Shown one piece after another: positions 14,520 through 16,983 of a DNA stretch of 38,357 bases. The position numbers were made by a program, and so were the translations under genes. Source of the DNA: an uncultured Candidatus Saccharibacteria bacterium (GTDB lineage Bacteria > Patescibacteriota > Andersenbacteria > UBA10190 > CAIZMI01). Numbering within the stretch: the stretch's first letter is position 1; each line of letters starts with the position of its first letter. The stretch spans positions 1 through 38,357 of the forward strand of contig CAZVRG010000006.1 of assembly GCA_964630025.1 (NCBI GenBank), given 5' to 3'. The notes beneath the pieces were generated by a model. It did no database searches, was not told the DNA's origin, and saw nothing but the letters and a program-made list of their open reading frames with translations.

Positions 14520-14538
14520 GTATGCGCGAACCAGCGTA

Positions 14539-15474
14539 TCACGACCTGCGGTGCGTCGCAAGTTGCGCGGGTGAGGAAGCAAGAAGACCGGTCTCCGCGT
14601 AGGCACGAATGCCGGCACGGATATCGAATGCGGGCACAAACCCGAGAAGCTGCTTGGCGCGGGTCATGTCACATTCTGTGTGCTCTTGATACCGGCCCGC
14701 GTACGGATTCTCGATGTATTCCGGGACACGCTGCGTGCCCAACACCGCATTCAGGAGAGCGACGAGATCATTAAATGCTGTGGCGGTGCCAGAGCCACAG
14801 TTCACAACCGCGCTCGTCCGCGCCTCCGCCGCGAGCATGTTTGCGCGTACGACATCATCCACATAGATGTAGTCACGCTTCTGCTCGCCGAATTTGAACA
14901 GCCGCGGATTGCCTTCGCGCATCTGCTGCGCGAACTGCGTAATCATGGTTGCCCGCTTGCTTTTGTGACCTTCTCGCGGCCCGAAGACATTGGAGTATCG
15001 CAAACCGACCACAGTGACGCCTTGGTGCGCCGCCGCAAAGGCCATGGCGCGTTCATCGAGCGCAAGTTTCGACTCGGCGTATGGGTTCAACGGATGGACG
15101 GGCCCGTCTTCCCGATACGGTGCGGGAACATCGCCGTACACTGCGCACGATGCGGCATAGACGATGCGTGCGCATCCGTGTGCAACGGCGTCCTGAAACA
15201 GTTTGAGAGAGCCGTCAACATTCACCCGAAACATGTTTTCGCGATCAAGATCCGTCGTGTCATTATTCGCCGCTTGATGAAACACCACATCCAGCGTTCC
15301 AAGTTTCTTCCAATCCAACGCCCAAAACTCTCGCGGGAGTACCCGCTCCCGAAGTTCCGGAAGGTCTTGTTCCCCCGTTGTTCCCGTGATCCACACTTCA
15401 TGACCCTGCGCATGGAGATGCAGCGCGAGATTGGACCCAATAAAGCCTGTCCCGCCGGTCACCAAAACGCGCAT
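14539..15474 (-). CDS. NAD-dependent epimerase/dehydratase (ADP-heptose 6-epimerase-like)
   Basis: [49 protein letters not shown]. Confidence 0.88.
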
Positions 15475-15578
15475 GACACGAGTGACAGTAGCGCGCGAGC
15501 GTGCGAGCGTGCAAGCGTGCGAACAATGCCTACGGGACGCACTGTACGAACAGCAGCACACTCGCCATGCGATGAACT

Positions 15579-15596
15579 GCTATCATTCTTGATAGC
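15579..15596. promoter_or_regulatory. 18-bp palindrome (operator-like), copy 1
   Basis: GCTATCA-ttct-TGATAGC. Confidence 0.65.
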
Positions 15597-15599
15597 GAA

Positions 15600-16007
15600 T
15601 CAGCGATCGCCGACGAATGGAAAGCGCTTCATGAATGCCGCCGGCGACCCTATGAGCACGCCTCGGTCCCATCGTGGTTGCGCGTGCGTGCGGCGAGAAG
15701 CTCGGTGACGAAGCGGAAAGAGGCGGCGATAGCCAGGACGCTCGGCATCGAGCCACCGATCTACCCGCCGGATGAGATTCGGGCTGACATGAAGCGCATC
15801 CTGAATCATCCGGTAGCTTTGGCCGCCAAGGAGGCGTGCCGCGATTTCAAGTCGGCGCACAAGCACTGTGCGTTCCGTCTTGGTAAGGAAATACCGAAGA
15901 AGGATGAGGGTATCGGTTCCGCGACGCTTCTCGAAGAGATCACGAAGCAGCGTCAGCGCCCGTTGGTCGGCCGCGAGCGAAATCTCTACTGATCGTCTTC
16001 GTGGCAT
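15600..16007 (-). CDS. TrpR/YerC-like HTH protein
   Basis: FLTKTER..LVRRLEIAARLLGGQSYRMIQDALHVS...IRRV Trp-repressor-family pattern. Confidence 0.8.
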   Translation of the reverse strand: MPRRRSVEISLAADQRALTLLRDLFEKRRGTDTLILLRYFLTKTERTVLVRRLEIAARLLGGQSYRMIQDALHVSPNLIRRVDRWLDAERPGYRRLFPLRHRASRRTHAQPRWDRGVLIGSPAAFMKRFPFVGDR

Positions 16008-16027
16008 TGCTATCATTCATGATAGCA
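16008..16027. promoter_or_regulatory. Palindrome (operator-like), copy 2
   Basis: TGCTATCA-ttca-TGATAGCA directly before the ATG. Confidence 0.65.
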
Positions 16028-16083
16028 GACGCACACAGGAGTGCATTGCAACACTGTCTGGTACGCTCTGGTATGCTAGTGAT

Positions 16084-16983
16084 GTGCCATCACCTGAGGC
16101 GGTATCAAGATCAGCTGATCTCTTCACATTCCCGGAACCGCTCGCGTCGAATCTCGAGGGGTTCGCCGCGCCGTTTTCCAGCTGGTTTTTGTACACCCCC
16201 GCCCGTGCGCTTCTCGACGCGGGTGAAGGCATTGCAAGCCGCTTAGGGAACCGCGTATTTGTGCCCGAAGTCGTCTTTCTCACACATGCACACTATGATC
16301 ACATTGCCGGACTCACGGGATTTCTTCTCGCCCGCACGTCCGCTCGCGGAGACGACGAAAAACCGCTCACCATCTATTATCCGGAAATCGCCGAACGCAA
16401 TTTCGCCAATTTGCGCGGATACGTCGATACGGTCGTACGCAGAAAAACATTTCCGCTCACGTGGAAAGCCGTTGCTATTGGGGAGCGCATTCCGGTGCGT
16501 CATTGGTTCGTCGAACCGTTCGCAACGAAGCACTCCGTGCCCTCCGCCGGATACCGTTTTCTCGAGATGCGACGTCGCTTGCGTCCCGCGTTCCAGGGGA
16601 AGCTCCCGCAAGAAATCATCCAGCTAAAAAAAGAACAGGGTGACGATACGCTCCACGAAGAGTACGCGCACGTCGTTCTTGCCATGACGGGAGACACGGG
16701 CCCGAGCATTGATGGATCACTCTTCACGAATGCCGACGTGCTCGTCCACGAAGCAACATTCCTCAAGCCGGAAGATCGGGAAGGCGATGACCACGCAACG
16801 GCGGAAGATGCATTCATCCTCGCGCGCAATGCGCACGTGAAAACGCTCGTGCTCTATCACATCAGCCAACGGTATTGGCGACGCGACATGCAGCGCGTCA
16901 TTCCCGCGCTGCAAAAAAAGACCGGCTACCAAGGCCGCGTCGTAGTCGTCGCCGGATTCACGCACCCCGACGGGTTTTACTAA
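16084..16983 (+). CDS. rnz: Ribonuclease Z, Thermotoga-like (MBL fold)
   Basis: FSSWFLY, LDAGEG, FLTHAHYDHIAGL, TGDT, HEATF, DHAT, LYHISQRY; GTG start 6 nt after TATGCT. Confidence 0.85.
   Translation: MPSPEAVSRSADLFTFPEPLASNLEGFAAPFSSWFLYTPARALLDAGEGIASRLGNRVFVPEVVFLTHAHYDHIAGLTGFLLARTSARGDDEKPLTIYYPEIAERNFANLRGYVDTVVRRKTFPLTWKAVAIGERIPVRHWFVEPFATKHSVPSAGYRFLEMRRRLRPAFQGKLPQEIIQLKKEQGDDTLHEEYAHVVLAMTGDTGPSIDGSLFTNADVLVHEATFLKPEDREGDDHATAEDAFILARNAHVKTLVLYHISQRYWRRDMQRVIPALQKKTGYQGRVVVVAGFTHPDGFY

Follow-up and report, generated by a model that had tools for sequence, protein, structure and literature searches.

Why would a small gene for a DNA-binding protein carry the same palindrome at both of its ends? 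The question arises from a window of 38,357 nucleotides (nt), contig C6:1-38357 of a 997,074-bp assembly (here G000; 72 contigs, 96.65% complete, GC content 56.6%), in which a gene for a TrpR/YerC-like protein is enclosed by two copies of an 18-bp palindrome. An earlier sequence-only reading of this DNA had proposed that the copies were either operators or recombination-like sites, and had favored the latter, with the gene as a minimal cassette. We find the operator reading better supported because the palindrome belongs to a family of 19 sites in this genome, the paralogues of the gene have specific palindromes of their own, and the type of palindrome tracks the recognition helix of the encoded protein across distant genomes. 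In our assessment the palindromes are probably cognate operators of a long-form subfamily (about 135-180 amino acids, aa) of TrpR/YerC proteins present across Patescibacteria-type genomes, with autoregulation and a cooperative or insulating 3' site, and it is very likely that the window protein binds them. A predicted two-operator bracket around the regulator's own gene would be the hallmark of this long-form subfamily. The central features of the locus are as follows.

15600-16016, minus strand: long-form TrpR/YerC-like gene, 138 aa (135 aa with the start at 16007)
16009-16026: 5' copy of the palindrome, GCTATCATTCATGATAGC (wider stretch tGCTATCATTCATGATAGCa, 16008..16027), promoter-proximal and proposed as an autoregulatory operator
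15579-15596: 3' copy of the palindrome, GCTATCATTCTTGATAGC (19-nt direct-repeat form tGCTATCATTCTTGATAGC, 15578-15596), proposed as a second operator

Both copies lie exactly where the sequence-only reading had placed them, and their consensus is GCTATCAttcWTGATAGC. They also form the direct repeat with a single mismatch that it had described (15578-15596 and 16008-16026; 19 nt, 18/19 identical, 430 nt from start to start), and the 3' copy does end 3 nt from the stop codon of the regulator gene (15600-15602). At the other end there are two in-frame start codons. The first (16016-16014) is overlapped by the palindrome itself, and it is to the second (16007-16005) that the earlier statement of a 1-bp distance from the ATG applies. 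A homologous-protein search returned only four relatives, 59-61% identical to the window protein, and three of them begin with MIAM, a start that is spelled in the window by the half-site ATGATAGCAATG. With up to two mismatches allowed, the motif matches exactly twice in the 38-kb window, where 0.03 matches are expected, and none of 100 dinucleotide shuffles reached two. A chance origin of the pair was rejected on the basis of these shuffles, a reversed control, Markov-1 genomes, and a genome-wide bracket test.

The motif is not private to the gene in the window. The genome scan that the sequence-only reading had suggested recovered 19 copies in 997 kb (17 exact, 2 with one mismatch) against 1 for the reversed control, and the spectrum of matches with 0/1/2/3/4 mismatches was 17/2/0/17/193, compared with 0/0/2/22/210 in simulated Markov-1 genomes. 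The arms are invariant in all 19 copies, whereas the two central bases vary (TC/GA, GT/AC, GC, CC, CT, CG), as do the flanks; the asymmetric spacer, whose conservation had been taken to favor a cassette, is therefore not special to the window pair. The commonest extended form of the motif is AGTGCTATCATnnATGATAGCACT. Judged by our crude gene caller (952 calls, 84% coding; rpsO was missed), 12 of the 19 sites are intergenic and 7 lie in frame inside genes, a distribution with a binomial P of 4e-6 in a genome that is 84% coding, and 10 of the 12 intergenic sites have a gene start within 200 nt. Neighbors of the sites include rplK, comEC (just after ftsZ), cysS, recO, and several unannotated genes.

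The genome contains five PF01371 matches, and four of the five are each bracketed by their own, different palindrome, which answers the earlier suggestion that the other TrpR-like paralogues be examined for flanking palindromes.

C6 (the window): bracketed by the window motif
C7: bracketed by TGTTACAGTATACTGTAACA
C2: bracketed by TTTACCTATTTACGTAAATAGGTAAA-type sites
C26: bracketed by TTTACCGTTTTACGTAAAACGGTAAA-type sites
C11: TGTTCTCATATATGAGAACA at the gene start only

Identity of these paralogues to the window protein is 25-29%; C2 and C26, at 64%, are the most similar pair. Under a strict bracket test, which demands a perfect palindrome on both sides of a gene and a shared 9-mer or longer between the two, 5 of 835 gene calls pass: the four TrpR-like paralogues and one unrelated open reading frame (ORF). 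The latter (C43:1889-2332, 147 aa) is flanked on both sides by a unit of ~40 nt, a GC hairpin with a T-run followed by TTGAC, which is a duplicated terminator-promoter block. The palindromes of the paralogues also occur as solo copies (about 2-4, 3, 5-6, and 1). Copies of the C-type palindrome cluster in glycosyltransferase, NeuB, and Wzy genes and often sit exactly at gene junctions, where they provide the stop codon of the upstream gene and abut the next ATG. Two other repeat families were noticed in this genome. One is the palindrome CTATAGAGGTTwAACCTCTATAG, with 7 copies (C15:5965, C16:16707, C21:13519, C25:6156, C26:7994, C38:7152, C62:1313), all intergenic and none beside a TrpR-like gene; the other is the hairpin AAACATGAAGCAGTTCATGTTT, which has A/T-rich flanks and looks terminator-like (C2:5981, C2:7361, C8:237, C10:16852).

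When the recognition helices of the proteins are aligned beside their palindromes, the same helix is found with the same palindrome.

Helix SPN(L/T)(I/V) or GPNTI (SPNxI/GPNTI): GCTATCAT..ATGATAGC, here and in four distant named metagenome-assembled genomes (MAGs)
Helix VTARTITTVNN: ACATTCATACAGTCGTGTATGAATGT, in two genomes of different families
Helix VTSRTITSVNN: a one-base variant of ACATTCATACAGTCGTGTATGAATGT
Helix ASKSTxxLV: ACAC(G/A)GTACGTAC(C/T)GTGT, that is, ACACrGTACGTACyGTGT
Helix GISTIxSVD: CATATCGATATG
Helix GMSTIRxID: ATAT(A/T)ACGT(A/T)ATAT
C2/C26 pair (64% identical): two related TTTACGTAAA-type sites

The recognition helix of the window protein is HVSPNLIRRVDRWL. Covariation of this kind is the usual comparative evidence for a predicted cognate pair of regulator and operator. 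A search for TGCTATCATNNATGATAGCA across 185,579 species genomes, which returned 51 loci, led to the four distant genomes: at four of the loci, two or three copies surround a TrpR-like gene of 145-161 aa, with a locus GC content of 37-49%. The four MAGs comprise one Parcubacteria, two labeled "Patescibacteria group," and one Saccharibacteria. In the Parcubacteria MAG GW2011_GWA2_47_8b (L103/L104), a solo site on another contig is a 34-bp extended palindrome identical to the site adjoining the regulator. Immediately upstream of this solo site is an ORF that may resemble a tyrosine recombinase at its N-terminus. At L188 (G305), the regulator is flanked by GCTATCATG-TTTTAAAA-CATGATAGC, which combines the window half-sites with a longer center and a different helix, VSSTTVSKV. 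The gammaproteobacterium Thalassotalea castellviae (L136/L137) has two copies of TTTGCTATCATyCATGATAGCAA with identical flanks, 833 nt apart, and the ORF list for that locus contains no obvious TrpR-like ORF.

The bracketed architecture recurs in relatives. Within the order, PF01371 matches occur in 13 of 41 genomes (0/14 in one genus), and 13 of the 23 loci pass the strict test; 18 of 23 pass a looser reading, in which a perfect palindrome on one side is paired with shared 9-mers in both orientations on the other. In a sample of the phylum, 95 of 301 genomes have a match, mostly a single one, with a range of 0-8 per genome. Short canonical YerC-like genes (about 102-139 aa) make up the best-scoring 30 phylum loci, and only one of them, a ~136-aa form, passes the strict test; among 40 further phylum loci, lower-scoring and mostly longer, 18 pass (3 of the 40 are repeats of loci in the first set). 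Usually no more than about 10 nt separate the stop codon from the start of the 3' palindrome, and the modules stand among different, unrelated genes at each locus. Outside this genome the palindrome stands largely at the flanks of the gene itself, with 4 copies in G031 (2 flanking), 3 in G023 (2 flanking), and one perfect and one near copy in G001. The largest expansion seen is in G185, a genome of ~0.8 Mb from the same phylum with 8 PF01371 matches, where 2 of the 7 loci fetched pass the strict test.

The identification of the bracketed gene as TrpR/YerC-like, made earlier from its translation, is borne out by a match to Pfam Trp_repressor (PF01371) with E 5.3e-9 and 36.5 bits against a cut-off of 27. 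A profile built from 10 family members matches the YerC-like structures 3FRW, 3KOR, and 3G1C in the PDB at ~E 1e-19 and E. coli TrpR at ~1e-7. The AlphaFold2 (AF2) model has a mean predicted confidence (pLDDT) of 80.7, with a helical TrpR-like core to about residue 110 and a basic, low-confidence tail at residues 111-138 (pLDDT 52-59), and the top Foldseek matches are all TrpR or YerC-like (probability 1.00, TM(target) about 0.6, E 0.02-0.1). The relatives span 131-177 aa; the long-form members share a basic linker, often followed by a hydrophobic C-terminal helix (..FRLLLGD or HFLLLNLLLD). A metagenome scan with the single window protein found no relative.

Neither the TrpR nor the HisR equivalog model accepts the window protein. 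It scores 20.3 bits with the TrpR equivalog model (TIGR01321), below the cut-off of 67.25, and has no match to the YerC/YecD = HisR equivalog (TIGR02531); paralogues C7 and C2 are barely above the YerC/YecD cut-off (42.8 and 49 bits vs 42.2). In B. subtilis, HisR is the product of yerC. A role as tryptophan or histidine repressor was ruled out because the 96.65%-complete genome has no match to His_biosynth or Trp_syntA, and none of the 51 annotated site neighbors is a trp or his gene.

The genes on either side of the module provide the local context of the two sites.

14539..15474, minus strand: NAD-dependent epimerase/dehydratase gene (Pfam Epimerase, E 4e-47)
16084..16983, plus strand: metallo-beta-lactamase (MBL)-fold gene (Pfam Lactamase_B_2, E 2e-12)
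15516..16117 (approximate): stretch present here and not in the syntenic region of the same-genus genome G001

The 3' copy lies 104 nt upstream of the epimerase ATG (15474). The epimerase gene, with rpsO and pnp after it, runs in the same direction as the regulator. In this genome it may be a target of the 3' site, and to this extent the earlier proposal of an operator for the epimerase-rpsO-pnp run fits. The proposal does not generalize: the downstream neighbor is convergent in 10 of the 16 loci of relatives with a called neighbor (crude ORF calls), so the 3' site cannot generally be the operator of the next gene, and we rejected this as a general explanation. On the other side, the MBL-fold gene is divergent from the regulator gene and 57 nt from the 5' palindrome; it is a possible target of the same predicted operator. 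An ORF that overlaps the regulator gene on the plus strand (15678-15992) has no Pfam match. Directly 5' of the epimerase start codon, at 15490-15521, an 8-bp unit (GCGTGCGA-like) stands in three tandem repeats.

Comparison with relatives indicates that the palindrome-gene-palindrome unit comes and goes as a whole. The epimerase and MBL genes are divergent in G001 too, but about 128 nt separates them there, compared with 609 nt here, and this space contains neither a TrpR-like gene nor the palindromes; no copy of the window motif is present anywhere in G001. The gene is accordingly not fixed at this locus, as it would have been had no relative an empty site. The intergenic alignment of the two genomes does not place the ends of the insertion or deletion, and the intergenic DNA is diverged. 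Metagenome contigs (Logan assemblies of three DNA runs, all belonging to a single groundwater study) add a co-occurring organism, ~80-85% similar, that has no regulator module at this position: its contig in run X1 spans 14538-16267 in 1242 letters, where the window has 1728. A sister module, C26, sits between metG and tatD, its first palindrome starting right after the metG stop; in G001, G003, and G004 metG and tatD abut or overlap, and in G002 75 nt lie between them. The neighbor of C7, an M50 peptidase gene, was not found in G001 or G003.

The part of the cassette claim that stands, therefore, is that of a unit of insertion or deletion. Nothing indicates site-specific recombination: the palindromes are module-specific, no circle junction was found, and no IS630-type DDE domain was found in the genome. 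Specifically, the contigs of the three runs, which drop rare variants, contain no join across the gene in the strain of the window and no deletion, inversion, or circle junction, the last having been proposed earlier as a check. What the cassette idea still describes is the inheritance of the module; it does not amount to evidence of recombination sites.

The hosts of the copies inside genes are a small ORF and the genes for LeuRS, a methyltransferase, a YfhO-like membrane protein, and TsaD-like, MurE-like, and SufD-like proteins. Judged against relatives, the MurE site lies within a lineage-specific in-frame insertion of 28 aa and the TsaD site within one of 7 aa, and the methyltransferase has two insertions, one with the window palindrome and the other with a different palindrome. 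The suggestion that all intragenic sites are insertions is true for MurE, TsaD, and the methyltransferase and was rejected for the two LeuRS sites, where the stretch has the same length as in G001 and only the sequence differs. Other insertions were observed in two of these genes: the peptide GNREQGT(G), which stems from the 7-bp repeat GGGAACA, occurs as two in-frame insertions in LeuRS (C18:9639-12149) and as one in the TsaD-like protein (C29:118-1305), and LeuRS has an extra ..IASEAKQSH.. stretch that is lacking in G001. Essential genes of this genome seem able to accommodate numerous short insertions in frame.

How might two such predicted operators around one gene work? The site family, the separate palindrome of each paralogue, and the tracking of the helix give the operator claim of the sequence-only reading its comparative support, and autoregulation is what we infer from them, together with DNA binding, repression, and looping or insulation. 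A dimer would bind each palindrome of 18-24 bp. Binding at the 5' site, which overlaps the start codon and the likely promoter, would lead to autorepression, and the 3' site, a few nucleotides from the stop codon, would act together with it, either through a loop that takes in the ~430-bp gene or as a roadblock shielding the small transcription unit from neighboring transcription. The about 17 further near-perfect sites, mostly upstream of housekeeping genes (rplK, comEC, cysS, recO), would make the protein a wider regulator.

Several observations weigh against this account. The sites have no tail of degenerate versions, which is unusual for a regulon, and many copies are extended to perfect palindromes of 34-62 bp with copy-specific outer arms, an extension that a dimer on two independent half-sites does not need. 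The 7 of 19 sites within coding sequence are all in one frame, encoding (S/T)AI(I/M)(H/N)DS, for which classical regulation offers no explanation. The account explains neither the exactness of the 19 sites nor the in-frame intragenic copies nor the long palindromic extensions, and it gives no reason for the 3' site at the 10 of 16 loci where the downstream neighbor is convergent. In addition, the strict bracket test fails at roughly half of the phylum-wide loci, and no promoter with the sigma-70 consensus is predicted at 15350-16250, although that consensus may not be the one used in this phylum.

In a rival reading the unit would be a selfish or mobile one-gene module, with the palindromes as its ends and the helix-turn-helix (HTH) protein binding them in the manner of a transposase N-terminal domain; an unknown or host-supplied activity would move the unit, and the same process would spread the solo palindromes. 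The joint absence of gene and palindromes at the syntenic G001 site and in the contig of the co-occurring relative points in this direction, and so do the sister module between metG and tatD, the patchy distribution of the family in order and phylum, the unrelated neighbors, the compactness of a unit whose 3' palindrome stands beside the stop codon, the intragenic copies in in-frame insertions, and a weak NCBIfam match of paralogue C7 to the N-terminus of an IS630 transposase (E 6e-5). We nevertheless regard a mobile module as unlikely. Pfam finds only Trp_repressor in the unit and no catalytic domain, no recombinase was found, and no domain of the one transposase family searched for, DDE_3 (IS630-type), is present in the genome. 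Near-identical copies of the module are absent, the paralogues being 25-64% identical, and no target-site duplication accompanies the two insertion sites inspected, one of which has fuzzy ends. The contigs contain no rearranged form, the two LeuRS sites have the length seen in G001 and hence are not insertions, and fixed arms around a variable center look like selection for binding and not like copy-paste. A broader combination of both ideas seems distinctly unlikely: a self-propagating regulatory module, so far undescribed in Patescibacteria, that would insert as a block between or into the junctions of housekeeping genes with its own operators as ends, seed exact operator copies throughout the genome, including in frame in essential genes, and in this way rewire transcription in a minimal genome, the HTH protein being both end-binder and regulator.

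The absence of a degenerate tail, the 7 sites inside conserved genes (among them LeuRS, TsaD, MurE, and SufD), and the lack of a common function among the site neighbors would also suit sites that organize the chromosome in the manner of ParB/parS, Noc/NBS, or MatP/matS, where a protein marks exact palindromes and the copies at its own gene are part of the set. The hydrophobic C-terminal helix after a basic linker, which we take to resemble membrane- or oligomer-forming tails, could be accommodated as well. This is very unlikely in our view, as most other genomes have only 2-4 copies of the palindrome, mostly at the gene itself, a 1-Mb genome with five site sets for five paralogues would be atypical of such systems, and the sites are heavily concentrated in intergenic DNA close to gene starts. 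The palindromes might finally act as RNA, forming hairpins at the 5' and 3' ends of transcripts that terminate or stabilize them independently of the encoded protein. Several copies are indeed extended to very stable hairpins: the perfect palindrome of L127, 62 nt long, reaches -54 kcal/mol (z = -10.7), and the copy at ftsZ/comEC reaches -29.9 kcal/mol (z = -6.4). The 3' copies also come right after stop codons. The window copies, however, fold modestly (z = -1.9 and -2.7), and an intrinsic-terminator scan called neither of them, both lacking a T-run; moreover, hairpins leave unexplained the arms that are invariant over 19 sites and phylum-level relatives and track the recognition helix, and the intragenic copies lie in either orientation relative to their host genes. 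We consider an RNA-level role highly improbable.

If the palindromes are operators, as we prefer to read them, the modules offer testable pairs of protein and operator: one small fold in dozens of naturally occurring specificity variants, with the site of each beside its gene. The covariation table then lends itself naturally to working out the recognition code of this fold. The analysis also yields a predicted regulon for one such regulator and a conserved two-operator gene architecture whose purpose may be looping, insulation, or mobility. Should the modules move as units, they would represent a new route by which reduced genomes acquire and pass on regulatory circuits. To our knowledge, regulation in Patescibacteria (the candidate phyla radiation, CPR) is almost unexplored, and their genomes hold very few regulators; none of those compared here is cultured. 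In the full-text literature we found no description of the subfamily or of the architecture, a search whose coverage excludes most subscription journals and which is hence not proof of absence.

Among known systems, insertion sequences and pdif or integron cassettes resemble the module as compact units with matching end repeats, presence or absence in close genomes, and a variable context. They differ in that the unit here has no transposase or integrase domain, with no DDE_3 in the genome and no target duplication or recent copies seen, and, unlike the cassettes of Xer/dif (pdif) and integrons, each module type has its own palindrome tracking the HTH in place of a shared recombinase core site. 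The dnaA gene is flanked by DnaA-box clusters in the bipartite oriC of the Bacillus type, and domain IV of DnaA is classed with the TrpR-like fold; both cases thus present the gene of a TrpR-like-fold DNA binder bracketed by its own sites (predicted, in our case), but the present proteins have no AAA+ domain, occur as several paralogues per genome, and have nothing linking their sites to replication. Repressor genes located between pairing or looping operator sets are familiar from lambda cI (OL/OR) and from lacI, with O3 at its 3' end. As in those cases, a repressor gene is bounded by what we predict to be its own sites, and paired sites a few hundred bp apart could cooperate; here, in contrast, single palindromes hug one gene of ~0.4 kb, and the layout is family-wide across a phylum.

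The TrpR/HisR (YerC) repressors of PF01371 share the fold. The palindromes of ~18-24 bp found here compare with TrpR/HisR operators that are described in PMC9413887 as 20-bp palindromes with a lineage-specific consensus; the same paper reports a site upstream of the gene itself for about half of hisR (yerC) genes. In the present family, too, the motif is lineage-specific, and it co-varies with the protein. The window protein differs from these repressors in its 138 aa with a basic, poorly predicted C-terminal tail, compared with about 100 aa, in scoring below the NCBIfam cut-offs for TrpR and YerC/YecD, and in having no trp or his neighbors, while up to 5-8 paralogues occur per genome. The long form also differs in its second predicted operator just after the stop codon, an arrangement seen in only 1 of the 30 short canonical members, the ~136-aa form.

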